From an uncultured Dehalococcoidia bacterium (lineage in GTDB: Bacteria > Chloroflexota > Dehalococcoidia > Bin125), in contig CAYFZI010000001.1 in the NCBI GenBank assembly GCA_964347635.1, forward strand, positions 29,322 to 93,321: a stretch of DNA of 64,000 nucleotides, given 5' to 3'. Under the pieces are notes generated by a model, which did not search any database, was not told the origin of the DNA, and saw only the letters and a list, made by a program, of their open reading frames with translations. Below, one piece after another: positions 28,823 through 46,141 of the stretch (positions are counted from its first letter, which is position 1; the number at the start of each line of letters is the position of its first letter). A program made the translations under genes and the position numbers.

Positions 28823-29734
28823 TTACGGTACGGCTCCGCGTGTGCGGGCGACGGCGGCGGCGAGCGCCGCTGCATCCGCCGCGCCCGTCAGCCGTTCGCG
28901 GTAGACGCCGCTGCGGTCGATCAGCAGCAGCTCCGGCAGGCCGTCGATGCGGTAGTGGACGGCCGCGGCCGCCTCGCGGTCGATCACGCTGGGGATGCCC
29001 AACGCGGCTTCGACAAAGGCCCGCGCGGCTGCGCCCGGTGCGTCGTAGACGTTGATCGCCAGCACGGCCAGATCGCCCTCGGCGCCGCCAAGGCGGCGCC
29101 ATAGCTCGTCGAGCTGCCGCAGCAGCTCGAGATCACCCGTGTTCCAGGAGGCCCAGAAGACCAGCACGACCGTCTTGCCCCGGAAGTCGGAGAGCGCCGC
29201 GCTCCCTTCGCCTTCCAACCGCGGCAGCGTGAAGTTGGGCGCCGGCTGGCCGCGCTGCAGCCGCGCCGCGCCCGCTTCGATGCTGGGCGGGATCTGGTCC
29301 GCTGCAGCCCGAATCGAGGCCGGCGAGCTGCGCAGCCAGCGATCGACGGCCGCCGCCTGCCAGCTGAAGAAGCGGCGCTCCGGCATGATCGTGCGCACCG
29401 CGCCGCCCAGCTGCACGGACAGCGCGACTTCGACTCGGCCGTCGGCGTTGCGCCGCACCCGCACCCGCAGCGAGGCTGCGCCGTGCTCCACCGCCGAGGA
29501 CTGCAGCCAGCGGTCAACGGGCGCCTGCGCGTAGGGGAAGAAGCGGGCGCGGGGGCAGCGCCGCTGCGACTCTTCGGTCAGCTCGAGGCAGAGCTCGACA
29601 CGGCCGTCCTGCGCTTTGCGGGCAGCGATGCGCACCTCGACGGTATCGCCCTGCGCGTCGACTGCGGCGCCGCCGAGCAGCGCGGCCAGCAGGCCGAGCA
29701 GCGCCGCCGCCAGCGCCAGCCGCGCCATGCTCAA
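28823..29734 (-). CDS. Secreted protein: 2x novel N-repeat + redox-inactive TlpA-like thioredoxin-fold domain
   Basis: Signal peptide, then two copies of the EVRIAARKAQDGRVELCLEL...FFPYAQAPVDRWLQSS repeat, homologous to the N-terminal domain of the 38683-42984 array. The C-terminal domain aligns to TlpA/ResA (PAPNFTLP...GKTVVLVFWASWNTGD...GLPELLLIDRSG), but the WCxxC active site is replaced by WNTGD. Confidence 0.7.
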   Translation of the reverse strand: MSMARLALAAALLGLLAALLGGAAVDAQGDTVEVRIAARKAQDGRVELCLELTEESQRRCPRARFFPYAQAPVDRWLQSSAVEHGAASLRVRVRRNADGRVEVALSVQLGGAVRTIMPERRFFSWQAAAVDRWLRSSPASIRAAADQIPPSIEAGAARLQRGQPAPNFTLPRLEGEGSAALSDFRGKTVVLVFWASWNTGDLELLRQLDELWRRLGGAEGDLAVLAINVYDAPGAAARAFVEAALGIPSVIDREAAAAVHYRIDGLPELLLIDRSGVYRERLTGAADAAALAAAVARTRGAVP

Positions 29735-35320: not shown

Positions 35321-36520
35321 ATGAGTCGAACCCCGGTGCCCCACAGCGAGTGGCTCGAGGCCGCGGAAGCAGTTGGGCCGACCCTGCGCGGGCATGCCGA
35401 GCAGAACGAGCAGCTGCGCCGCCTGGCCCCGCCCGTGGTCGAGGCGCTGCGTGCTGCGCGGTTGTTCTCGATCTTCGCGCCGACCGAGGTTGGCGGCGGC
35501 AACCTCGATCCCGCTGGGCACCTCGAGGTCATCGCGGCGCTGACAGCGCACGACGGCTCGGCCGGCTGGTGCGCGATGATCGGCGCGCACGAATCGGCCT
35601 GGCTCGGCGCGCGTCTGCCCGAGTCCGGCATCGAGCGCGTCTTTGGCGCCGCGCAGTGGCCGATCACAGCAGGGCAGCCCTTTCCCGGCGGCGAAGCGCG
35701 GCCCGCGCCGGGCGGCTGGCGGCTCAGCGGACGCTGGGGCTGGGGCTCCGGCATCCACCACGCCGATTGGGTGATAGCGCAGGCGCGGATCGTCGATGGA
35801 CCTGGCGCAGAGCCAGGTGCAGAAACAGGCGCGGCCGAGAGCGAGGCGGGGCCGCCTGAACTGCTCACCGCCGTTGTCCCGCGCGCGCAGGTCGAAATCG
35901 AGGACACCTGGCATGTCGCCGGGATGCAGGGCACAGGCAGCAGCCACTACCGGCTCGAAGACGAATTCGTCAGCGCGGATTTTCGCCTGCAGCCCTTTGA
36001 GCAGCCGCCCCTGCGCGGCTCCGGCTGGGTCGCGCGGCCGACCCTCACCTTCCTCTGCCCGGCAGCCTTCGGGATCGCGCTGGGGCTGGCGGAGCGCGCG
36101 ATCGAGGAAGCGGCGGCGCTCGCCGCGACGCGTGTGCGGCTCGGCGCGCGCGCGCCGCTGGCCGAGCGCGAGCTCTTCCAGCGCGAGCTGGGCGAGCTGG
36201 CCGCAACCGCGCGCGCGATCCGCGGGCACGGCCTCGAGCTCTTCCGCGGGCTGGCTGAGGCGCCCGTGCGCAGCGTCTCCGACGCCGTGCAGATGGACGA
36301 CACCGCACGCAGCGCCGCCGCCTGGGCGACGCGCAGCGCCGAGTCGGTCGTGCGCACCGCCCACCGCGCCGCCGGCGGCGACGCCGTCTTCCTCGATCAC
36401 CCCCTCCAGCGCCTGCTGCGCGATGTGCAGACCGCCTCCCAGCATGTGGTCGTTTCCGACAACGCCTTCCAGCGCCTCGGCCGCCACACGCTCGGCCTGC
36501 CGGTGCGGCCCGGCCTGTGA
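35321..36520 (+). CDS. Acyl-CoA-dehydrogenase-like flavin-dependent monooxygenase/hydroxylase (group D), paralog 1
   Basis: ACAD type-2 fold without the CoA-thioester catalytic base pattern. TWHVAGMQGTGSSHYRLEDEFV is typical of HsaA/DszC/HpaB-like two-component monooxygenase oxygenases. Confidence 0.7.
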   Translation: MSRTPVPHSEWLEAAEAVGPTLRGHAEQNEQLRRLAPPVVEALRAARLFSIFAPTEVGGGNLDPAGHLEVIAALTAHDGSAGWCAMIGAHESAWLGARLPESGIERVFGAAQWPITAGQPFPGGEARPAPGGWRLSGRWGWGSGIHHADWVIAQARIVDGPGAEPGAETGAAESEAGPPELLTAVVPRAQVEIEDTWHVAGMQGTGSSHYRLEDEFVSADFRLQPFEQPPLRGSGWVARPTLTFLCPAAFGIALGLAERAIEEAAALAATRVRLGARAPLAERELFQRELGELAATARAIRGHGLELFRGLAEAPVRSVSDAVQMDDTARSAAAWATRSAESVVRTAHRAAGGDAVFLDHPLQRLLRDVQTASQHVVVSDNAFQRLGRHTLGLPVRPGL

Positions 36521-36582
36521 CCCGCCGAAGAGCGTGCGGATCGCTATGCTGGGTACCTGCTGAGAACCGAGGAGTGCTGGCG

Positions 36583-37116
36583 ATGCGCACTGCACTCGAG
36601 GTCGCTAAGTACTTTCTCAGCCTCGCCGCTGAACAGGGCGACGAGCTGAGTCAGCTGAAGCTGCAGAAACTCTGTTACTACGCGCAGGGCTACAACCTGG
36701 CGATGCGCGGCCAGCCGCTGTTCGACGACCCGATTGAGGCATGGGAGAAAGGCCCGGTCGTGCGGGGCCTGCGGCGTCATTTCGGGCCTCACGGTGAGAA
36801 CCCCATCCCTGCCGATCCGACGTTTGACCGAGAGGAGGCCTGCGGCGTTCGGGAAAGCGCGCTGCTGCACGCCGTCTACCGCGAGTTCCGCGCTGCGAGC
36901 GGCTCCGATCTCGTGACCGCGACTCACGGCGAACGGCCGTGGCAAGAGGCGCGCCAGAATGATGCGAACCTCTGCACCAATACCATGCGCGACCACTTCC
37001 TGCAGCGGCTTGAGTGCTCCGAGCGGCCCGCGCCGGTCTACCGATACTCACTGGAAGAGTCCTTGGCGCGCTCTGCAGCCGATATCGCCGCAGGCCGCTA
37101 CCGGCCGCTTCGGTGA
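36583..37116 (+). CDS. Panacea (DUF4065) domain protein, SocA/PanA antitoxin-like
   Basis: MRTALEVAKYFLSLAAEQGDELSQLKLQKLCYYAQGYNLAMRGQPLFDDPIEAWEKGPVV matches the Panacea domain signature. GAGGAG RBS. Sits between the two monooxygenase paralogs. Confidence 0.7.
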   Translation: MRTALEVAKYFLSLAAEQGDELSQLKLQKLCYYAQGYNLAMRGQPLFDDPIEAWEKGPVVRGLRRHFGPHGENPIPADPTFDREEACGVRESALLHAVYREFRAASGSDLVTATHGERPWQEARQNDANLCTNTMRDHFLQRLECSERPAPVYRYSLEESLARSAADIAAGRYRPLR

Positions 37117-37453
37117 CATCGCCGCCGCGCGGCTACGACTACGTCATCACCGATAAAGAGCTTAAAGAGCTGGATCTATACCACTGCTGCCGCGTACTGA
37201 CATGCGCGCTCAACGCGCCCTGGACGACTTGCCCGCTGATCCCACACTGAGGCGCCCAACCATTTCCAGGCGGTCAGGGGGAGAGTCGTCGAGCTTTGTG
37301 CTCAACGTTGGTGGCGTCGCGGTCTATTTCGACATGCTGAACGCGTACACCGCGGCCGTGCGTGCAATCCGTGTCGAGCGTTGATGCTCACATCGCCCGG
37401 CGCACCGCGGTACCCTGTGCGGGATCTCGGGGCCATGCGGCTGGGGGTGCGCC

Positions 37454-38641
37454 GTGAGCCGAACGACTCCGCAGCGCCGGCGCGAGCGCAGCGACTGGCT
37501 CGGCCGCGCTGAGGCGATCCATTCGACCCTGCGCGGGCACGCCGCCGAATCGATTCAGCTGCGCACCCTCGCGCCCGCCTCGGTCGATGCGCTGGAGGCG
37601 AGCGGCATCTTCGCCGTCTCCGGCCCCGAGGAAGTGAACGGCTTCGCCGTTCATCCGACAACGCAGCTGGAGCTGTTCGCCGAGCTTGCGCGCGCCGATG
37701 TCTCAGCCGCCTGGTGCGCGATGATTCAGGCGCAAACGACCGGCCTGGCCGCAGCCCACTTGCAGGACGGTGAACCACTCGACACCGTTTTCGGACCGTC
37801 CTACCCGCGCACCGCCGGCACCGCGAATCCGGAGGGCGAAGGGCTGCCCTGCGCGGGCGGGCATCGGCTCTCGGGGCGCTGGTCGTTCGCCAGCGGGATC
37901 CGCCACTGCGGTTGGGTGCTGGCCAATGTGCGCCTGCTCGACGCCGACGGCCAGCCGCGCCGGCTGGAGAGCGGGGCGCCGCGCATCACAGCGGTCGCCG
38001 TGCCGACCAGCGAGCTGGATATTGAAGACAGCTGGCACGTGATGGGGCTCGAAGGCACCGGCAGCTCGCATTACCGCATGCACGATCTGTTCGTGCCCAG
38101 CGAGTTCGAGCTGCCCTTCGGCGGGCCCAACCCGCGGCGCGGCAGCGCCTGGTTTGATGTGCCCACGATCACCTTCCTCAGCCCCGGCCACGCCACGATC
38201 CCGCTCGGCGCGGCGGAGCGCGCGCTCGAGCTGCTGCGCGAGGCTGCGACGCGGGTGCGCTTCGGGACCAGCACCTCGATCGGCGCGCGCGGCGCCTTTC
38301 AGCGCGATTTCGGGGTCGCCTCGCACCGCTGCGAAGCGGCCCGCGCCCACGCGGTCGACGTGCTCGACGGCGCTATGGCGCAGCGCGAGCGCGGCGAACC
38401 GATCACGCCGGCCGACGACGCCCGCATCCGCGGCATGGTCGCTTGGGTCACCGACACCTGCCTCGAGGTGGTGCGGTTCGCCCACCACAGCCTCGGCGGC
38501 GCGGCCGCCTTCCGCGAACACCCGCTGCAGCAGATCCTGCGCGATCTCAGCGCCGCCGCGCAGCACATGTTCGTCGCCGACACCGCCTACGAGCGCAGCG
38601 GCGCGCTGCGCCTCGGCCAGCGCCCGCCCGGCGCGCTCTAG
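37454..38641 (+). CDS. Acyl-CoA-dehydrogenase-like flavin-dependent monooxygenase/hydroxylase, paralog 2
   Basis: Homologous to 35321-36520 from the N-terminus (VSRTTPQRRRERSDWL vs MSRTPVPHSEWL; SWHVMGLEGTGSSHYRMHDLFV). GTG start. Confidence 0.7.
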   Translation: MSRTTPQRRRERSDWLGRAEAIHSTLRGHAAESIQLRTLAPASVDALEASGIFAVSGPEEVNGFAVHPTTQLELFAELARADVSAAWCAMIQAQTTGLAAAHLQDGEPLDTVFGPSYPRTAGTANPEGEGLPCAGGHRLSGRWSFASGIRHCGWVLANVRLLDADGQPRRLESGAPRITAVAVPTSELDIEDSWHVMGLEGTGSSHYRMHDLFVPSEFELPFGGPNPRRGSAWFDVPTITFLSPGHATIPLGAAERALELLREAATRVRFGTSTSIGARGAFQRDFGVASHRCEAARAHAVDVLDGAMAQRERGEPITPADDARIRGMVAWVTDTCLEVVRFAHHSLGGAAAFREHPLQQILRDLSAAAQHMFVADTAYERSGALRLGQRPPGAL

Positions 38642-38682
38642 GGCGCCGCGCCTGCCCCGCGCTGCGGCGGCAGCGCAGCAGC

Positions 38683-39678
38683 TCAGTAGTGGCCGCAGCG
38701 CGCGATGTTCTGCTGCAGCGGCGAGTCGAACAGCCCCAAGATCTCGAAGAACACTGTGAACCGCTCGCCGCGGATCTCGACGTGCATCCGCACATCCGAA
38801 GCGCCGCGCAGCTGTCCTGCGAATGCGCGCGGCGCGTCAGAGCTCACCGCGCCGCGGGGTTCCTCGGGGCCGCCGTGGATGTGCCATTTCGCTGAGCTGA
38901 GCGCTCCGCCGTCCACCGCCCAGAACACGGACGCCTCCGGAAACTCGACCTCGCCCAGCGGCGGCAGCCAGTACAGCTGCGCTATGAACTCCCGGTTGCT
39001 GCAGATCAAGGCCAGCCGGGCCCGCTCGTGCCCCTCGACGCCGGTCTTCTCGGAGATCACAGCGACGATCGTTGTCAGGTCCCTCTGCCCTCCGTCGTAG
39101 ACGGTGCCGTAGAGGATGCCGTCGGCCGTGGCGTCGCTGTCGACCGCGATCGGCTTGAACGCCGGGTCGACGGTCGTCGCCCACCAGGATTCCGCTGCTG
39201 CTGCGGCGGGGTCGAACTGCAGCGCGATCGGCGACGTCCGCAGCCAGCGGAAGTGCCTCGTATTGGAGGGGAAGTAGCGCCTGGGGGGCAGCATCAGCGC
39301 GCTCCACCAACCGTCGTTCCGGAGCTGCTGGAGGCCGAATTCCACGCGCCCGCCGCCGTCCCGCCGCATCGCGATTCGCACCTCGGTGATCGAGACGCTG
39401 CCGCCGCTCTCGATCCGCAGCTGGATCGGCGTGCCCTTATACCAGCGCGCGTGCGCCGCGTCTGCCCCAAACAGCCAGGTGCCGTGCTCCTCGTAGCTGC
39501 CCCAGGCGCCCCCGGCGCCGCGCCGCTGCAACCCCAATTCATAGCCGCCGCCAATGTGGTTGCGTGCGGCGACCCGAACCTCCAGCTCCAGCGGTGCGGC
39601 CGCCGCGCGCTCCGCAAGCGCCGCCGCAGCAAGCGCCGACAGCAGCACAAACACGGCCAGCAGTACGGCCTGCCCCAT
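38683..39678 (-). CDS. Novel secreted paralog A: signal peptide + 2x N-repeat + C-domain ending CGHY
   Basis: Signal peptide MGQAVLLAVFVLLSALAAAALA. Two N-repeats: EVRVAARNHIGGGYELGLQRRGAGGAWG... and EVRIAMRRDGGGRVEFGLQQLRNDGWW...RRYFPSNTRHFRWLRTSPIAL. The C-terminal domain (LTTIVAVIS...LICSNRE...FEILGLFDSPLQQNIARCGHY) is shared with the three upstream genes. Confidence 0.75.
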   Translation of the reverse strand: MGQAVLLAVFVLLSALAAAALAERAAAAPLELEVRVAARNHIGGGYELGLQRRGAGGAWGSYEEHGTWLFGADAAHARWYKGTPIQLRIESGGSVSITEVRIAMRRDGGGRVEFGLQQLRNDGWWSALMLPPRRYFPSNTRHFRWLRTSPIALQFDPAAAAAESWWATTVDPAFKPIAVDSDATADGILYGTVYDGGQRDLTTIVAVISEKTGVEGHERARLALICSNREFIAQLYWLPPLGEVEFPEASVFWAVDGGALSSAKWHIHGGPEEPRGAVSSDAPRAFAGQLRGASDVRMHVEIRGERFTVFFEILGLFDSPLQQNIARCGHY

Positions 39679-39806
39679 CCGCAGTACAGCTCCAACAGCC
39701 CTAGGCCTGCACGCACGCATCGGCGCACTCCTATTCAAGCTCACAGCCAGGCAGCGCCCTACCCTACCGCGCCTGCGCAGCGCGGCGGCGCGCCTATTTC
39801 CTGTCG

Positions 39807-40829
39807 TCAGTACTCGCCGCAGCGATCGAGGTTGGGCTGTATGGGGGTGTCGAAGAGGCGGGCGACCGCGAACTCGAATGTTTCGAGGTCGCCGTCGTTG
39901 TCGCGGCCGCGGATCACGACCGTTTCAGCGTTGCGCAGCTGTTCCGCAAAACCGCGGTCATCGGGCGGGCTGGCCGCGGTGCTGAGGTTGCCGTCATCGA
40001 CGATCTCCCATTTCGCCGCGACCGCGTCTGCTTGGTTAATCCGATACTCCATGTCGAGTTCCCGCTCCAAAAACGTGAACGGCATGCCGGTCACGACGAC
40101 CTGAAAATCACCCTCGAAACAACCGAGCAGGAGCATTGCGGGCTCGATTTCGAACGAACTGGCCTCAGTGTGCCGGACGCTGATCAGGCTGGTCAGAGCG
40201 TCGTCGATCGGGTCGCGGGTGGTTGTGTAGAAGACATACTCGCCGAGTTGTGTAACGCTCTCGTCCTCGTAGGGGGCGAACGCTTCGTCCTCCTCGGATC
40301 CCGCCGCATCTTCTGCATCCTGAGCCGCTGCTGCTTCGTCTTGCTCCCCATCCTGCTCATCGGCCCCCGGCAGCGGGTCGCCGGCGGCCCAGTCTGCAGG
40401 CGGTATCAGAATCTCGCGGCCGATATTGAGGATAGTGTCGAGCTCCAGATCCTCATTGAAGGCGAGCAGATTGTTGATGTCGACGCTGTACCGCCGGGCG
40501 AGCCGATAGAGCGTGTCGCCGGCGCTGACGGTGTGCACGGCGGCGGGCTGTATCGGTTCGGGCTGGGGCTGTTCCTGCTGAACGGCCGCGTCCGCCTGCC
40601 CGCCCGCATCCTCGGCAGCAGGCTGCGGCTGCTCCTCCGCGGGTTGAGCCTGTTCCTGCGGTTCGGGCTGCGGCTCCGGCGCGGGGCGCTGCGACTCGAT
40701 CCGCGTCTGCTCAGCGCCGTTCTGCTCCTCATCGTCGCCGCTCCTGCCGACGATCACCACCAGAGCAACAAAGCCGACCAGCAAGAGCAGCCCGATCGCC
40801 GCGATGATGCCGAGGCAGCCCTGCGCCAT
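39807..40829 (-). CDS. Novel paralog B: TM anchor + Pro/Gln/Glu-rich linker + LysM domain + C-domain ending CGEY
   Basis: N-terminal TM helix (IIAAIGLLLLVGFVALVVIV). LysM (HTVSAGDTLYRLARRYSVDINNLLAFNEDLELDTILNIGREILIPP). C-domain (LTSLISVRHTE...LLLGCFEG...FAVARLFDTPIQPNLDRCGEY). Its ATG overlaps the upstream gene's stop as TGATG. Confidence 0.78.
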   Translation of the reverse strand: MAQGCLGIIAAIGLLLLVGFVALVVIVGRSGDDEEQNGAEQTRIESQRPAPEPQPEPQEQAQPAEEQPQPAAEDAGGQADAAVQQEQPQPEPIQPAAVHTVSAGDTLYRLARRYSVDINNLLAFNEDLELDTILNIGREILIPPADWAAGDPLPGADEQDGEQDEAAAAQDAEDAAGSEEDEAFAPYEDESVTQLGEYVFYTTTRDPIDDALTSLISVRHTEASSFEIEPAMLLLGCFEGDFQVVVTGMPFTFLERELDMEYRINQADAVAAKWEIVDDGNLSTAASPPDDRGFAEQLRNAETVVIRGRDNDGDLETFEFAVARLFDTPIQPNLDRCGEY

Positions 40830-42040
40830 CAGTACTGCCCGCAGTAGTCCAAATTGGCCTGAACCGGCGTCTCAAACAGGCCCGCCAGCGGCAACTGTAT
40901 GTGCTGGCTGCCGCTGCCTGGGTTGATGTGGAATTCGAGCACGCGCGCTTGGCGCAGCTGCGCGATGAACGCAGCGTCGTCATCCGGGCTGATCCCTGAC
41001 TCTACCGAGAAGACAAACATCCAACGATGCGTGGTCGCTGCTCGACCGTCAAGTCGAACACTCGTAACTGGCGTACTTTCTATCTCGGTGATCCAGAGCC
41101 AGAGCGCGCTGTCATTGAGAATGATATCAAGCCGATCGACGTCACAGATCATGTGCAGTGTGCCACTGCCTCTTCTGAGAGTGACGCCTGTGGTCAGGGC
41201 TGTTGGATCCAGATGCGGGCTCACCCAGTATTCGATATCGATGAAGACGAGACCGTTTGTCTCGCCCAAGAGGGCAACCCCTCCAGGTGTGGAACGTCCG
41301 CAGTAGTCGATGTTCGGCTGGGCCGGCGTAGTGAAAAGCCCGGCCAAATCTATCGTCGCACCGCCAGAGCTCCCTCCTCCGAATTGAACGGTCAGCGTCT
41401 GTGAACGCTTGAGCCGTTCCACAAACGTCGCATCGTCGTCGGGGCTGTACCCAGAGGTGGCACCGCGGTAGGAGCGCCAATTGACAGTTTCGATTTCGCC
41501 CCCGTCGAAGCGCAGCAAGATCACTTCACCGTCGCCGTAGAAAAACCGATAGTCCCAGTCAACCAATACATCAAACTTGCCTTGGGCGCAGACCAGTTCA
41601 ATCGAAAAATCGTTGGCATGCGTGCGGACGATGGTGGTGAGCGTGTCGCTCAGGGGGTCGCGCTCGACTTCGTACCAGAGATCCGCTTCGCCCGTGCCGA
41701 TCGTCTCTCTGGCGGGTTTCCAGCCCGCCGGCGGATTCGGCCCCGGCTGCGGGCGCGCCGCAACAGGCGCCGGCGCCGGCGCGCCGACTGTGAGCGGCGA
41801 GCTGTTCAGCCAGCGATCATGGTCGATTTCGGCGGGGAGGTAGCGGGCTTGCGGGAGTTGGCGCTCGCCCCAGTCGCCGCCGCCGTGGCGCTGCTGCAGG
41901 CCGAACTCAGTGCGACCGTCGTCGAGGCGCCGGACGCTGATCCGAACCTCGGTGTCCCCCTCCACAGCGCGGACTGTGAGCGTCGCGATGCCGGCGATCA
42001 GCGCCAGCACCACCAAGCCGATGACGCTGTTCCTGGCCAT
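40829..42040 (-). CDS. Novel paralog C: signal/anchor + N-repeat + Pro-rich linker + 2x C-domain (ending YCGRS / YCGQY)
   Basis: MARNSVIGLVVLALIAGIATLTVRAVEGDTEVRISVRRLDDGRTEFGLQQRHGGGDWGERQLPQARYLPAEIDHDRWLNSSPLTV. Two tandem C-domains: ...LTTIVRTHANDFSIELVCAQG...DLAGLFTTPAQPNIDYCGRS and ...HMICDVDRL...LPLAGLFETPVQANLDYCGQY. Confidence 0.78.
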   Translation of the reverse strand: MARNSVIGLVVLALIAGIATLTVRAVEGDTEVRISVRRLDDGRTEFGLQQRHGGGDWGERQLPQARYLPAEIDHDRWLNSSPLTVGAPAPAPVAARPQPGPNPPAGWKPARETIGTGEADLWYEVERDPLSDTLTTIVRTHANDFSIELVCAQGKFDVLVDWDYRFFYGDGEVILLRFDGGEIETVNWRSYRGATSGYSPDDDATFVERLKRSQTLTVQFGGGSSGGATIDLAGLFTTPAQPNIDYCGRSTPGGVALLGETNGLVFIDIEYWVSPHLDPTALTTGVTLRRGSGTLHMICDVDRLDIILNDSALWLWITEIESTPVTSVRLDGRAATTHRWMFVFSVESGISPDDDAAFIAQLRQARVLEFHINPGSGSQHIQLPLAGLFETPVQANLDYCGQY

Positions 42041-42174
42041 AGCCCGCGCCTTTCCAGCAGCTCACTCGCCGAATGGAGGAGGCAAGCGGGAAAGCTACAG
42101 CCCGAAAGCTGCGCGATCAACCGCCGCCGTGCTCTGCATTGCCGCCGCCCGGATGAACGCGGGGCGGCCTTGGC

Positions 42175-42984
42175 TCAATTGGCGCCCGCAGTGCTCTGCC
42201 CGCAGTTAAGAAGGTTGCGGTGCACCGGAGTCTCAAGCAGGCCTTCAATGTCCAGCGTGATTGGGCTGGGAGATCTCGACCACAATCTGATCGTGAGTGT
42301 GGAGCGGCCCCGCAAGCTGTTCAGAAATGGCCCGGCATCGCTTGGCCCATAACCTGCAGTGCCTATGGCCGGCCATGTGCTCTGCTGCAACGGGCCGTCG
42401 TCAATGCGCCACTCAACCTCTTGGGTGCCGCTGACGTAGTACCAGTCGTCATCGGCTACATACACACGCAGTCGGTCGCTGCACAAGATTATCAACTCGA
42501 GCGGATCCTCCAGAAATCCAGGGCCAGGGTCTTCCTCACTAGTCCGAACTATGGTGCTCACCGTGCCATCAAACGGATCTCGGGATACGAAGAATCGAAT
42601 ATTCTCGCTGGTCTCTCCACCGGCCCACACCAGCCCTTCCGTCGGCAGTAGGGAGATGCCCCCTTCCAGCAAATGGCCGTGGATCGCGGAGGCCGCGCTG
42701 TCGGCCGTCAGCTCATCCTCGGCGGGGCCCAGCGTGAGCGGTGAGCTGTTCAGCCAGCGATCGTGGTTGACTTCGGCGGGGAGGTAGCGGGCTCGCGGGA
42801 ATTGGCGCTCGCCCCAGTCGCCGCCGCCGTAGCGCTGCTGCAGGCCGAACTCGGTGCGGCCGTCGTCGAGGCGCCGGACGGTGATCCGAACCTCGGTGTC
42901 CCCCTCCACAGCGTGGACTGTGATCGTCGCGATGCTGGCGATCAGCGCCAGCGCGAGCAAACCGATGACGCTGTTCTTAACCAT
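42175..42984 (-). CDS. Novel paralog D: signal/anchor + N-repeat + C-domain (ending NCGQS)
   Basis: MVKNSVIGLLALALIASIATITVHAVEGDTEVRITVRRLDDGRTEFGLQQRYGGGDWGERQFPRARYLPAEVNHDRWLNSSPLTL is ~90% identical to the N-terminus of C. The C-domain is ...VSTIVRTSEED...LIILCSDRL...DIEGLLETPVHRNLLNCGQSTAGAN. ATG at 42984. Confidence 0.75.
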   Translation of the reverse strand: MVKNSVIGLLALALIASIATITVHAVEGDTEVRITVRRLDDGRTEFGLQQRYGGGDWGERQFPRARYLPAEVNHDRWLNSSPLTLGPAEDELTADSAASAIHGHLLEGGISLLPTEGLVWAGGETSENIRFFVSRDPFDGTVSTIVRTSEEDPGPGFLEDPLELIILCSDRLRVYVADDDWYYVSGTQEVEWRIDDGPLQQSTWPAIGTAGYGPSDAGPFLNSLRGRSTLTIRLWSRSPSPITLDIEGLLETPVHRNLLNCGQSTAGAN

Positions 42985-43119
42985 ATTTTGTGTTCTCTCA
43001 ACCGTTCGCACGCCGAATCGCAGGCGGCAAGCGGGAAAGCTACAGCCCGAAAGTTGCGCGATCAACCGCCGCCGGCGCAGCGAGCAGGAGGGGCGCTGGG
43101 GCGCGGCGCGCCTGCGCTG

Positions 43120-44688
43120 TTACTCGTTTTTGGCTTCCCCGTGCGTTTTGCGCAGGTCGTTCTTCAGCACTTTGCCCATGTGGTTGCGGGGCAGGCTTTC
43201 GACTACAGCCAGGTAGGTCGGCGCTTTGTAGCTGGCCAGCTGCGCTTTGGTGTAGGCGACGGCGTCGTCGAGCGTGAAGCTGCGGCCTTCATGCAGGATT
43301 ACAACGGCCTTGACAACTTCGCCCCACTCGAGGTCGGGCGCGCCGATCACCGCGGCCTCCGCCACCGCCGGGTGGCCCTCCAGCACCTGCTCGATTTCGC
43401 CCGGCGCGATGTTCTCGCCGCCGCGGATGATCAGATCTTTGGTGCGGCCGGTGATGAATAGGTAGCCCGCGTCGTCGAGGTAGCCGACATCGCCGGTGTG
43501 CAGGATGCCGTTGCGGATCGCTGAGGCGGTTTCCTCTTCCTGCTTGTAGTAGCCGGCCATGATGCGGTCGCCGCGGACGCAGATTTCGCCCTCTTCGCCT
43601 GGCCCAACGGGGTTATCGGCGGGGTCCAGGATCAGCACCTCGATATCGGGCATGACCTTGCCGACAGAGCGCAGGCGGTGCTCTTTGAGCGCGATCTCCT
43701 CGGCCGAGCCTTCGAGCCGGTGGTCGTCGGGGCCGAGGAAGGAGATGGAGCTGGTCGACTCGGTCTGGCCGTAGGCGTTCATAAAGCCGACGTTGGCGGG
43801 GAAGAGATCGACGGCGGCGCGGATCACGTCGTAGGGCATCGGCGCCGCGCCGTAGGTCAGCAGCTCGAGCGTTTCACCGTTGAACTTGGCGAAGTCCTCG
43901 TGCTCCATGGTGCGCTTGAGCATCGTGGGCACGATCATCGAGTGGGTGATCCCGTGCCCGTCGACGGCGTCGATCCAGGCGGTAGGCGAGAACTGGGGCA
44001 GAATCACGAGCGTGCGCCCGCCCCAGATCGAGGAGATCATCGTGGTCGCGCCGGCGATGTGGAAGAGCGGGACGCTCAGCAGCGTCTTCTGGTGCGGCGC
44101 TTCGGGATCCGCCGGCGACATCGTGTTGGTCACGTAGACGGTTAGATCCTGGTAGGTGACCTGAACGCCTTTGGGCATCGCGGTGGTGCCGGAGGTGTAG
44201 ATGATCACGGTCGGGTCTTTATCGTCGACCTCCGCCCAGACGAAGTCTTCGGAGCCCATCGCCATCAGGTCGTTGTAATGCTTCTGGGTGAGGTGCTGCG
44301 ATTCGAGCGAGATGTAGTGCTCGACGCTGGGGCAGCGCTCGGCGATCGCGTCGACCAGCGGCTGATAGCGGTCGGAGACGAAGATCAGCTTCGTCTCGGC
44401 AGTGTTGATCATGTACGTGAGCTCTTCGCGCTTGGCGCGGTAGTTGAGCGGTACGAACGTGATCCCGAGCTTGGCGCAGGCGTAGTAGATGATCACATAC
44501 TCGGCAGAGTTGACAGACATCACGCCGACATGGTCGCCGCGGCTCAGCCCGAGCCCCTGCAGCGCGTTGGCCAGGCGGGTCACCTCGGCGGAGAGCTCGG
44601 TGTAGGTCTTGACCGTGCCCCCGCAGATCAGCGCTGCTCTATCGGGCACCATGGCGGAGCTGAGTTCGAGGAAGTCGGCGGTATTCAT
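43120..44688 (-). CDS. Long-chain-fatty-acid--CoA ligase (AMP-dependent synthetase)
   Basis: AMP-binding motif IIYTSGTTAMPKGV, YGQTE, and the C-terminal GEI/GK region (ASYKAPTYLAVVESLPRNHMGKVLK). Confidence 0.92.
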   Translation of the reverse strand: MNTADFLELSSAMVPDRAALICGGTVKTYTELSAEVTRLANALQGLGLSRGDHVGVMSVNSAEYVIIYYACAKLGITFVPLNYRAKREELTYMINTAETKLIFVSDRYQPLVDAIAERCPSVEHYISLESQHLTQKHYNDLMAMGSEDFVWAEVDDKDPTVIIYTSGTTAMPKGVQVTYQDLTVYVTNTMSPADPEAPHQKTLLSVPLFHIAGATTMISSIWGGRTLVILPQFSPTAWIDAVDGHGITHSMIVPTMLKRTMEHEDFAKFNGETLELLTYGAAPMPYDVIRAAVDLFPANVGFMNAYGQTESTSSISFLGPDDHRLEGSAEEIALKEHRLRSVGKVMPDIEVLILDPADNPVGPGEEGEICVRGDRIMAGYYKQEEETASAIRNGILHTGDVGYLDDAGYLFITGRTKDLIIRGGENIAPGEIEQVLEGHPAVAEAAVIGAPDLEWGEVVKAVVILHEGRSFTLDDAVAYTKAQLASYKAPTYLAVVESLPRNHMGKVLKNDLRKTHGEAKNE

Positions 44689-44740
44689 CTGGGCATCCTC
44701 CGCGTGGACGTGGTTGGTGCGGCCGGGGTGGTCGGCGTGG

Positions 44741-45483
44741 TCATGGTGAACAATCAGTGAGTTTAGAACGGAGCCGCCGTGCGGTCTGCGCGTCGCGCTC
44801 GACAGCCGCGGCGAGGGGCAGCTCGAGGCCGCGGCGGATGCTCCGCTTGACGGCGGCGGTGACGGCCGGGTCGGCGGCGGCGATCCGCGCGGCGGCGCGG
44901 TTCACGGCCGCCTCGAGCTGTTCAGAGGCGCAGACGCGGTGCACGATCCCCCAGGCGAGCGCCCGCTCGGCATCGATCGGCAGCCCGCTCAGCACCAGGC
45001 CGGCCGCGCCGCCGGCCGCGCCGATGCGCGGCATCAGCTGCGTGCCGCCGGCCGAAGGGATGTAGCCCAGCGTGACCTCCGGCAGCGCGATCCGAGTGTC
45101 GGCGGCGGCGATCCGCAGGTCGCAGTAGAGCGGCAGCTCGATGCCGGCGCCGAAGCAGAATCCGTGCAGCGCGGCGATCGTCGCGATCGGCAGCGCTTCG
45201 AGCAGCGCCCAGAGGTCGCGCCGGCGGCGCGCCTCGCGCGCCTCGTGCAGCGAGGGTGCGCTGCCGAACTCCGTGATATCGGCGCCGGCCGAAAAGGCGC
45301 GCGGCCCGGCTCCGGCGAAGATCAGCACGCGCACATCGGGGTCAAGCTGCGCGGCCTGGATGTAGGTCCACAGCTCATCGCGCATCGCCAGGTTGATCGC
45401 GTTCAACGCCTCCGGGCGCTGCAGCGTGATCCGCGCCACCCCGGGCGCCGGCTTGGCGTAATCGACGAGCGCCGCAGCGCTCA
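44741..45483 (-). CDS. Enoyl-CoA hydratase/isomerase family protein
   Basis: ARITLQRPEALNAI, RVLIFAGAGPRAFSAGADI and HGFCFGAGIELPLYCD. GTG start at 45483 chosen so the N-terminus matches the crotonase fold. Confidence 0.8.
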
Positions 45484-45638
45484 CCGGCGCATCCCCGCGC
45501 TGCACAGCTGCGGGCCGGCCCGCAGCCGTCCCCCGCCTGCGGCATCTCCCTCCGCAAGCGGAGGGCGAGCGGACGGAGGCCGCTGCAGCGCCGCCTTCGC
45601 AGGCGGGCAGCAGATCGGCGGGAGAGCGGGCACGGCGC

Positions 45639-45881
45639 TTAGCGCCAGTCGGGGCGGCGGATCTCGCTCTTGCGGCGCACTTCCCACAGCCGTTCGATGT
45701 CTGCGTTGATCTTCTCGTGCAGCGCATCCATCTCTTCGCGGCCGGGGCGCATCTCGTTGGATTTCCAGCGGCGCACGGCAGCGCGATCGGACTTTTCCAG
45801 CTCGGTTTCGTCCAGCATGCGGCTGATGATGCGGTTCATCACCGCCCACGCCTCTTCGATATCAAGCTCGACTTTGACCAT
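45639..45881 (-). CDS. Small hypothetical protein (80 aa), paralog of 45893-46141
   Basis: MVKVELDIEEAWAVMNRIISRMLDETELEKSDRAAVRRWK... shares EEAW..M.......LD..EL......A.R.W......GR with the adjacent ORF. Confidence 0.5.
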   Translation of the reverse strand: MVKVELDIEEAWAVMNRIISRMLDETELEKSDRAAVRRWKSNEMRPGREEMDALHEKINADIERLWEVRRKSEIRRPDWR

Positions 45882-45892
45882 GGCGGGCGCTC

Positions 45893-46141
45893 CTAGCGAA
45901 CGGTGCGGTAGTAGTCGCGGCGGCGGATCGTGCGGGTCAGTTCAGCGTCGATCGTGTTGCCGAGCGCTTCGTTGACGGCGGCGGCGAATTCGACCATCGC
46001 CGGGCGGCCCTCTTCGAGCCCGGCGCGCCACTCGCGGATCGCTTTGACGCCCGCGTCGCTCAGCTCGACTTGGTCGAGCACTTGCGCGGTGACCAAGGTC
46101 ATCAGCGACCAGGCCTCTTCTTCGTCGAGCATTAGGCGCAT
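45893..46141 (-). CDS. Small hypothetical protein (82 aa), paralog of 45639-45881
   Basis: MRLMLDEEEAWSLMTLVTAQVLDQVELSDAGVKAIREWRAGLEEGRPAMVEF... is a tandem paralog of 45639-45881 in the same orientation, inside the crotonase gene train. Confidence 0.5.
   Translation of the reverse strand: MRLMLDEEEAWSLMTLVTAQVLDQVELSDAGVKAIREWRAGLEEGRPAMVEFAAAVNEALGNTIDAELTRTIRRRDYYRTVR

Follow-up and report, generated by a model that had tools for sequence, protein, structure and literature searches.

The question raised by this locus is why two neighbouring genes, here called C and D, begin with nearly the same DNA, and whether the non-coding part of that common sequence is a promoter, a regulatory RNA or a trace of gene-family evolution. 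The locus lies in a window of 64 kb, the whole stretch of DNA that was analysed. Two otherwise very different genes have the same front end because it was copied fairly recently between them. We consider it likely that the copied unit is a ~347-bp expression-and-export cassette, passed between adjacent ancient paralogs, and that its upstream core is promoter DNA. The C/D cassette is ordinary gene-family evolution and involves no new regulatory RNA.

A repeat search identified a direct repeat on the minus strand with ~347 nt in common between the 5' ends of the two genes (Table 1). It consists of a coding part of 259 nt at 91% identity (41783-42041 against 42727-42985, spacing 944) and an upstream part of 53 nt at 96% (spacing 945). 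MAFFT alignment agrees with the search, so that two methods return one repeat and confirm its existence as reported in the preliminary description. There it had been given ~315 bp and ~93% identity over the first ~240 bp; the block is in fact longer, and its coding identity is 91-92% over the first ~255 nt. The identity had also been traced ~75 nt upstream of each ATG, which holds for the core at positions -89 to -37 and fails as a continuous match, since positions -35 to -1 agree at only 54% and there are further differences in the first three codons. Because identity breaks off before the ATG, the block has three parts: the core (-89 to -37, 96%), an island (-35 to +11, 60%) and coding sequence to about +255 (92%). 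Outside the block identity drops to ~50% (49-55% over 45-60 nt at each edge), giving sharp boundaries and bearing out the earlier picture of a conserved leader with diverging flanks. The 3' edge coincides exactly with the boundary between the N-terminal domain and the linker. The 45-nt core occurs exactly twice in the 64-kb window at 0 mismatches, and not at all in 100 dinucleotide shuffles.

Table 1. Features of the C/D locus, in coordinates of the window.
Feature	Position	Strand	Remarks
Shared 5' cassette, D copy	42727..43074	-	repeat search and alignment; flanks ~50% on both sides
Shared 5' cassette, C copy	41783..42129	-	repeat search and alignment
53-nt core upstream of D, probable promoter	43022..43074	-	TTGATC 43060-43065, TAGCTT 43037-43042
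53-nt core upstream of C, probable promoter	42077..42129	-	TTGATC 42115-42120, TAGCTT 42092-42097
Diverged island of D (-35..+11)	42973..43019	-	A-rich, 68% AT at -16..+9; predicted open
Matching island of C	42029..42075	-	GC-rich, typical of genome
Gene D, 269 aa	42175..42984	-	ORF; Sec signal peptide (putative), conserved N-terminal domain, linker, one beta-rich C-terminal domain, end ...NCG
Signal-peptide coding part, D	42910..42984	-	MVKNSVIGLLALALIASIATITVHA/VEG, read from sequence; C equivalent 41966-42040
Conserved ~55-aa N-terminal domain, D	42730..42900	-	EVRITVRRLDDGRTEFGLQQR...RWLNSSPLT; C equivalent 41786-41956
GC-rich hairpin after D stop	42141..42168	-	conserved in L001; weak terminator candidate, no U-tract, z +0.9
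Gene C, 403 aa	40829..42040	-	ORF; N-terminal cassette as in D, Pro-rich linker, two C-terminal domain copies
Gene B, older paralog downstream	39807-40829	-	LysM and C-terminal domain
Gene A, older paralog downstream	38683-39720	-	two diverged N-type repeats and C-terminal domain

The block is no assembly artefact. A near-identical independent assembly (L003) also has it, with 3 SNPs in 4097 nt, and it is present at the syntenic locus of a sister lineage (L001) whose genome is 95.4% identical over 12.8 kb. There the genes stand in the same order (D', C', B', A'), and both D' and C' carry the block, so that the leader does recur in a related genome. The core of the block is represented by three independent sequence sources only.

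The exact gene D protein is found in the public collection (P0001), and the AF2 model of D gives its C-terminal domain a pLDDT of ~90. The paralogy of C was mapped by tblastn; P0003 is the gene C product of a near-identical strain (S35T), and the stop of C overlaps the start of B. The young cassette is absent from both B and A (38683..40829, minus strand). By inspection, each N-terminus of C and D is a putative Sec signal peptide with n-h-c regions, comprising MVK or MAR, a 19-residue hydrophobic stretch and the cleavage motifs VHA/V and VRA/V; homologs have AxA-type sites (AWA, ALA, VQA) at the cleavage position. The upstream neighbour of the pair is an AMP-binding gene, and the surroundings are acyl-CoA metabolism genes. 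Scanning both intergenic regions on the minus strand found no intrinsic terminator. The hairpin following the D stop was rejected as a D-C terminator, lacking a U-tract and being no more stable than shuffles.

Outside the block D and C differ by a saturated dS of 3.3 and a dN of 0.76, and inside it by a dS of 0.12 and a dN of 0.074. C and D are ancient paralogs carrying a young 5' block, and the sharp tract edges together with the dS of 0.12 in the tract against 3.3 elsewhere identify a segmental copy. Orthologs in the sister lineage differ by a dS of 0.14 within the block and of 0.06-0.12 in adjacent genes. Since block dS is about equal to ortholog dS and the sister lineage has the block in both genes, the 5' cassette was copied shortly before the lineage split; the copy predates the split from this ~95%-identical relative. 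Gene-family expansion or conversion, offered earlier as an alternative, thus stands as regards the segmental copy and not as a recent duplication, given paralogs this old and a copy that precedes the split. The copy may have arisen by gene conversion, or by duplication followed by 3' replacement, and may have run in either direction between C and D. Within the block, nonsynonymous and synonymous changes number 12:3 on the internal branch and 4:12 on the terminal branches (Fisher p=0.004), the internal branch thus holding 3 synonymous changes.

According to the preferred explanation, a cassette made up of a sigma-70-type promoter (TTGATC-17 nt-TAGCTT), 5'UTR, Sec signal peptide and first conserved ~55-aa domain would have been moved from one gene onto the other by homologous recombination, shortly before the split from the ~95%-identical sister lineage. 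Its protein part would then have undergone a brief burst of amino-acid changes followed by strong purifying selection, while the translation-initiation region of D would have changed drastically.

A different history, in which repeated gene conversion between C and D is still under way and homogenises the promoter and N-terminal coding part, with the initiation region and a few residues kept apart by selection, appears unlikely. Direct repeats spaced by 944 nt lend themselves to recombination, the D-C dS in the window is slightly lower than the ortholog dS (0.12 against 0.14), two synonymous sites group the paralogs within each genome (CTG/TTG, CGC/CGT), and one of only 3 SNPs in the near-identical assembly turns codon 35 of C into the D state (41937). 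Against this, 15 of the sites in the 249 nt of block coding sequence group the orthologs and 2 group the paralogs, D-D' and C-C' are 96% identical compared with 92% for D-C, and in the core the A/G difference follows the orthologs. Two such sites against 0 'cross' sites are within the range of homoplasy, and the SNP could reflect read mixing in a short-read metagenome, contig ends of which carry adapter sequence. Since the orthologs group together, the C/D copy is a past event and not a demonstrable case of ongoing concerted evolution. Segmental gene conversion between bacterial paralogs, with concerted evolution (for example PMC6053082), is alike in its low-dS tract, sharp edges and old paralogs; the difference is that the C/D paralogs do not group within each genome.

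No regulatory function has to be invoked for the conservation of the core. Identity of 96% is as expected for a copy with a synonymous-site difference of 11-20%, and the near-identity of the core is chiefly due to the youth of the copy. The preliminary description had itself allowed that identity uniform across coding and non-coding sequence would leave nothing regulatory to explain; as applied to the core, such uniformity is what was found, 96% being what the age of the copy predicts. The strict 45-nt core has one mismatch, slightly fewer than expected (p from 0.03 to 0.0005, according to the rate assumed), and at the internal-branch rate (~5% per site) its conservation is as expected. Conservation beyond neutrality cannot be shown. 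Comparison of the core with 80 homologous loci of other genomes by blastn-short gave chance-sized matches only, and exact scans of JGI metagenome contigs with a 24-specified-base pattern and a 20-mer gave 0 matches.

The case for a promoter comes from the position and make-up of the core. The TTGATC-N17-TAGCTT arrangement pointed out earlier was recovered in both copies, and a search of the 64-kb window for TTGA-N18-20-TAGNNT returned two matches only, the C and D cores. Housekeeping promoters of high-GC bacteria have the form TTGACn, 16-18 nt, TAnnnT, with TAG..T-type -10 elements as in Streptomyces and mycobacteria. Compared with these, the C/D element keeps T1, A2 and T6 of the -10, 4/6 positions of the -35 and the optimal spacing. 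Against TTGACA/TATAAT, TTGATC scores 4/6 and TAGCTT 3/6 (including A2 and T6), a consensus that may not be the host's. A consensus promoter scan made no call at the C/D locus because TAGCTT matches TATAAT at only 3/6, and the best TTGACA/TATAAT score over family upstream regions (7.28 observed, 7.15 shuffled) was uninformative; positional analysis of TANNNT was informative.

In both copies TAGCTT ends 51-52 nt ahead of the ATG. A set of 63 regions preceding family genes in other genomes contains 61 TANNNT hexamers, of which 30 are found at a distance of 40-59 nt from the ATG, a peak confined to 2 of 20 bins, drawn from about 10 independent sequence groups and made up largely of TAGNNT (23/30). 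In the window, 20 of 33 TANNNT matches fall 20-59 nt before predicted starts, which were chosen heuristically, and are mostly gTA..(C/T)T with no clear -35; most of these candidate -10 elements thereby depart from the high-GC housekeeping pattern. In gene A, TAGGGT precedes the ATG by 40 nt. The -10-like hexamer of the core falls inside both the family-wide and the window-wide peak. Furthermore, C' of the sister lineage carries 7 clustered changes in the spacer while both hexamers and their 17-nt spacing are intact, a single event in which the spacer varied and the putative functional parts were kept.

Transcription of D would start near 43028-43032 and that of C is predicted to start at ~42083-42087, 5-9 nt downstream of TAGCTT. 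We regard promoter DNA, and not an RNA leader, as the most likely identity of the core, most of which is probably untranscribed and gives C and D the same transcriptional input. Sigma-54 and ECF-type promoter motifs, compared by eye, did not fit the core. A coding role of the core, as an upstream ORF or as an extended N-terminus, was also rejected: the TTG at 43065 lies in the D reading frame, the distance to the ATG is 80 nt in one copy and 81 nt in the other (a 1-nt indel that puts C out of frame), the extension is not signal-peptide-like, and homologs of gene D align from M1.

It is quite improbable, in our judgement, that the core is a neutral passenger of the young copy, with some other source of expression for C and D, such as read-through from the AMP-binding gene. 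Core identity close to what synonymous divergence predicts, ortholog comparisons too close to reveal constraint, and the lack of convincing terminators between the genes would all agree with it. What speaks against it is that a -10-like TAGNNT stands at the same place in distant family members and in other genes of the window, and that C' retains the hexamers and spacing despite its scrambled spacer. Moreover, the block extends a further 8-9 nt on the 5' side of the -35-like hexamer and therefore holds a complete promoter-sized unit.

The core might instead be, or contain, a transcription-factor operator co-regulating C and D, a proposal compatible with the promoter reading but one to which we give little credence. 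The conserved stretch exceeds the hexamers, taking in GGCGGCGG ahead of the -35-like element and TCCCGCTTGC beyond the -10-like one, and TTGATCGCGCAA in D forms a partial inverted repeat (TTG-N6-CAA). The extra conserved length follows from the youth of the copy, however, and the inverted repeat is broken in C (CAG); there is no adjacent regulator gene, the neighbours belonging to acyl-CoA metabolism, and the motif occurs nowhere else in the window.

A cis-regulatory RNA leader common to both mRNAs (riboswitch, attenuator, thermometer or small-RNA target) is very improbable: small stems can be drawn (CAGC/GCTG around CTTTCGGG) and the 5'UTR proposed for C is slightly more stable than shuffled sequence (z -1.97, marginal), but cmscan of 36000-46000 gave no Rfam match at E up to 10, the full leaders of C, D and their orthologs had z of 0.0 to +1.35 with four unlike MFE structures, the consensus fold of 4 sequences, at low power, had a covariation term of -0.75, and the core helix consists of invariant pairs whose innermost ones break in C'. 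A promoter in the core would leave most of it untranscribed, and the transcribed leader is the least conserved part of C/D (54%). The two GAAA-loop stems proposed earlier found no support either, their plus-strand version having z of -0.7 and -0.9. Of the two possibilities originally left side by side, a shared promoter or a regulatory RNA, the former is thus favoured by the retained hexamers and the 40-59 nt peak, and the latter is disfavoured by Rfam, folding and covariation.

The hyper-diverged island at the start codon is a real anomaly of the locus. C and D differ there at 19/47 nt, as against 22/289 nt elsewhere in the block (Fisher p=5e-8), and the composition of the D island is an outlier against 36 gene starts, again chosen heuristically. 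About 12 GC-to-AT changes appear to have made the D island A-rich and unstructured, which may affect translation. For the C island, folding predicts a pairing with the core's 3' end (CCCGC..GCCU with AGGC..GCGGG) that would cover the ribosome-binding region. Because the cassette is common to both genes and the initiation region of D appears drastically changed, D and C probably have the same promoter and different translation efficiency.

In the lipoprotein-like (lpl) cluster of Staphylococcus aureus, the intergenic region evolves as one unit with the 5' end of the ORF that follows it (Tsuru and Kobayashi 2008, PMC2568036). Both lpl and C/D are tandem exported-protein genes whose variable parts are reshuffled through recombination in a conserved internal stretch, and in both the intergenic promoter DNA moves with the 5' coding region as one block. 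The conserved recombination site of lpl is central, with variable 5' and 3' parts, whereas in C/D the 5' part is conserved and only the 3' part varies. The C/D case, resting on three sequence sources, is also below population-level reconstruction.

The vsp genes of M. bovis and vlp genes of M. hyorhinis have near-identical promoter/5'UTR and signal-peptide regions followed by a divergent body. C and D resemble these clustered paralogs in having a conserved cassette of probable promoter and putative signal peptide before divergent, fast-evolving exported domains. In vsp genes the cassette comprises a 150-bp promoter region and a 75-bp signal-peptide region each (PMC10504702). The putative C/D signal peptide differs in being Sec/SPase I-like and not lipoprotein, and the C/D cassette also includes a folded domain. 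Nor is there evidence of phase variation or its switch machinery in C/D: syntenic annotation shows no site-specific recombinase within ~6 kb on either side, and no inversion sites, homopolymer or short tandem tract are visible in the core or 5' coding region.

Similar mosaics were found in other genomes, where L022 and L074 share -68..+306 at 84.6% and nothing beyond, L012 and L079 share -129..+460, and L029 and L061 share -189..+472. The N-terminal domain family of C and D is unannotated and has >1,200 cluster representatives. Many of the genomes with this family are bins whose names look like those of sponge-metagenome bins. As a tentative extension, which we hold to be rather less than probable, the cassette may represent a portable promoter/signal-peptide/anchor-domain module of this >1,200-representative family, repeatedly recombined onto fast-evolving, compositionally atypical C-terminal payloads in Dehalococcoidia-like and Acidimicrobiales-like genomes.

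For annotation, the upstream element is to be described as a probable promoter common to two paralogs, not as a candidate regulatory RNA. The C/D locus is a clean, datable case in which promoter, export signal and domain appear to form one recombination unit between old paralogs, and its island is an unusually sharp directional divergence that might serve as a natural test of how expression is retuned after duplication. Also of interest are the N-terminal domain family, large and unannotated, which occurs in secreted proteins of uncultured Chloroflexota and Actinomycetota, and the payload domains, which are fast-evolving and of atypical composition. If the portable-module proposal is true, such exchange would place differently tuned secreted proteins under common transcriptional control, and the A-rich island of D would be an instance of fast retuning following the exchange, driven either by selection or by a local cluster of deaminations.

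The block shared by the 5' ends of C and D, two of four neighbouring minus-strand paralogs (A to D), is a real and well-delimited feature. The two genes lie head to tail, with a 134-135-nt intergenic region upstream of each. Repeat search identified a direct repeat at their 5' ends and a separate repeat, the core, further upstream; pairwise alignment of C and D agreed with this search. The shorter 45-nt core of the preliminary description occurs exactly twice in the window, with 0 matches in 100 shuffles, and the reported duplication of the 5' ends and upstream core was thereby recovered. The identity said to extend upstream of the ATG holds for the core, and not for the stretch between core and coding repeat, where -35 to -1 and the first three codons are only ~54% identical. 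Identity falls to 49-55% in the flanks on either side. At its 3' end the block coincides with a domain/linker boundary; at its 5' end it extends 8-9 nt beyond the -35-like hexamer.

Positions of the C/D block, the paralog genes and other features in the window
Feature	Position	Strand	Description
Gene D	42175-42984	minus	269 aa
Gene C	40829-42040	minus	403 aa
Gene B	39807-40829	minus	LysM domain; downstream of C
Gene A	38683-39720	minus	downstream paralog
Direct repeat	41783-42041 (C), 42727-42985 (D)		259 nt, 91% identity
Core repeat	42077-42129 (C), 43022-43074 (D)		53 nt, 96% identity
Start-codon island	42029-42075 (C), 42973-43019 (D)		-35 to +11
N-terminal module	42730-42984 (D), 41786-42040 (C), 28823-29728, 38683-39720
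Variable C-terminal parts	40829-41785 (C), 42175-42729 (D)
-10-like TAGGGT of A	39761-39766		40 nt upstream of the ATG (39720)
Single ORF	~36517-37116	plus
Tandem small ORFs	45639-45881, 45893-46141	minus	80 and 82 aa

The sequence beyond the block marks C and D as ancient paralogs (dS 3.3, dN 0.76); within the block, over 83 codons, dS is 0.12 and dN 0.074. A syntenic locus from another assembly, L001 (ENA ERZ25070760), contains the same four genes at 95.4% identity over 12.8 kb, and its orthologs D' and C' carry the same block. Ortholog dS between the window and L001 is 0.14 in the block and 0.06-0.12 in neighbouring genes. Four-sequence site patterns in the coding part of the block group the orthologs at 15 sites (3 of them synonymous), the paralogs at 2 and the "cross" pairs at 0. 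The dS contrast, the presence of the block in L001 and these site patterns therefore indicate a single copy event, somewhat before the window/L001 lineage split and long after C and D diverged. Such a copy would have arisen by gene conversion, or by duplication followed by 3' replacement. The internal branch carries 12 nonsynonymous to 3 synonymous changes and the terminal branches 4 to 12 (Fisher p=0.004), a burst of amino-acid change after the copy and then strong constraint.

The repeat had also been proposed as a trace of ongoing gene-family expansion or conversion. A young copy between paralogs fits this proposal in part, but concerted evolution that is still under way is not shown, since the site patterns predominantly group orthologs. 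Continuing exchange between C and D is a weak reading, to which the two paralog-grouping sites, both synonymous, lend something. So does L003, a near-identical strain with 3 SNPs in 4097 nt, one of which gives C codon 35 the D state (ACC for AGC, window 41937 and L003 2817). L003, however, was assembled from short reads, and its contig has Illumina adapter sequence at the ends; the SNP could be either micro-conversion or read mixing. Similar mosaics were found in paralog pairs of other Dehalococcoidia, with the upstream region, signal peptide and N-terminal domain(s) 85-90% identical and the 3' parts divergent. L022 (2927-3301) and L074 (2928-3301) have -68 to +306 in common at 84.6% and nothing beyond, L012 and L079 have -129 to +460, and L029 and L061 have -189 to +472. 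These alignments suggest repeated exchange of 5' cassettes in this gene family.

All four paralogs have a C-terminal domain ending ...TP.Q.N...CG.Y, while the N-terminal module is common to C, D and A. This module consists of a putative Sec-type signal peptide, recognised by eye (MVKNSVIGLLALALIASIATITVHA/VEG), with which the proteins would be exported, and a ~55-aa domain with the pattern EVRI..RRLDDGRTEFGLQQR..W..R..P..RY.PA....RWLNSSP, also given as EVRI...DGR.EFGLQQR...RWLNSSP. No Pfam or NCBIfam model matches the ~55-aa domain. It was matched in 1,216 cluster representatives (50% identity clusters), mostly with 2-5 copies in tandem. These proteins are 137-4152 aa long, and the domains joined to it are diverse and include LRR, RCC1, CAP and solute-binding domains; the window copy at 28823 is fused to a TlpA/ResA-like thioredoxin domain. 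Nearly all homologous loci belong to MAGs of Dehalococcoidia, Chloroflexota and Acidimicrobiales, the genomes carrying several copies each. The C-terminal domain of D has a confident, beta-rich AlphaFold (AF2) model (pLDDT ~90), for which a PDB fold search gave no significant match. The C-terminal parts of C and D, which are variable, have a GC3 of 0.69-0.70; that of the 5' cassette of the two genes, and of the genes nearby, is 0.87-0.88. In the comparison of the window with L001 the C-terminal parts have dN of 0.13 and 0.056 (neighbours 0.006-0.012), nonsynonymous evolution 5-20x faster. B begins where C ends, its start codon overlapping the stop of C (ATGA at 40829), so that the two genes are probably transcribed together.

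The preliminary description suggested a shared promoter or a regulatory RNA for the conserved core. With synonymous change of ~5% on the internal branch, the 53 nt should have collected 2-3 changes; they have 4, one of them in the strict 45-nt core. The core is thus about as similar as so young a copy would be, and conservation alone says little. Three independent observations, on the hexamers and on their position, favour the promoter reading, and the core is most probably a promoter. TTGATC, TAGCTT and their 17-nt spacing are unchanged in L001 C', although 7 clustered changes (CTTTCGGG to TCTGACAG) fell in the spacer. These seven substitutions (L001 6868-6884) create a perfect 8-nt palindrome, ACAGCTGT, and would seem to have arisen together, by one templated multi-nucleotide mutation, and not as separate point changes. 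In a set of 63 sequences upstream of family members in other genomes, 30 of 61 TANNNT matches fall in two of 20 bins, those covering 40-59 nt before the ATG; TAGNNT accounts for 23 of the 30, with ~10 unrelated sequence groups represented. TAGCTT of C and D ends 51-52 nt before the ATG. In the window, TANNNT is concentrated 20-59 nt before predicted gene starts, mostly as gTA..(C/T)T and usually without a -35 element. The C/D element agrees with this pattern and also has a -35 hexamer (4/6) at the optimal distance, a pairing of -35 hexamer with spaced -10 that occurs only in these two places in 64 kb. The element was not reported by a consensus promoter scan, since TAGCTT shares only 3/6 positions with TATAAT. 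Upstream of paralog A, the -10-like element has no recognisable -35 partner.

The regulatory RNA reading failed: an Rfam scan gave no match at the core, leader fold z-scores were 0.0 to +1.35 with four different structures, the plus-strand version of the proposed GAAA-loop stems folded insignificantly, and the leader alignment had no covariation, its innermost stem breaking in L001 C'. A coding core was dismissed, its frame being broken by a 1-nt indel between the copies and homologs starting at M1.

The diverged start-codon island differs between C and D at 19 of 47 nt, the remainder of the block at 22 of 289 (Fisher p=5e-8). Transitions make up 15 of the 19, and in 13 of the 19 D carries A/T and C carries G/C; the island is therefore homologous sequence diverged by point changes, which rules out an old unconverted patch. 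D is 68% AT (48% A) at -16 to +9 and C a typical 32%; at 36 other gene starts of the window AT is 34% (standard deviation 8%, maximum 48%). D is therefore the outlier and its island the derived state, fixed before the window/L001 split since D' has it too. Predicted accessibility at -15 to +4 is 0.58-0.61 in D and D' and 0.36-0.38 in C and C'; the predicted fold of C has the core's 3' end paired with sequence adjoining the ATG. Either a local mutational cluster or selection for an open initiation region may have produced the island. We infer that translation initiation was retuned after the copy, which would have kept the promoter and made translation different.

Elsewhere in the window, the plus-strand ORF is flanked by two acyl-CoA dehydrogenase genes, and its syntenic counterpart in L001 has PF13274 (SocA/Panacea antitoxin-like domain). 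The tandem small ORFs look paralogous from a common EEAW..M...LD..EL...R.W pattern, have no Pfam match and occupy a syntenic position in L001; they lie between two enoyl-CoA hydratase genes.

Variable lipoprotein families of mycoplasmas carry a conserved promoter and signal-peptide cassette (PMC10504702). The C/D block is like them in this respect, and segmental gene conversion in general is also among its closest analogues. The phase-variable class was rejected, the locus being without recombinase, inversion sites or simple-sequence tracts. The C/D feature is a young, recombination-derived 5' cassette common to two old paralogs, an ordinary kind of gene-family evolution; slightly more notable are the translation-initiation island and the large unannotated domain family to which it belongs.
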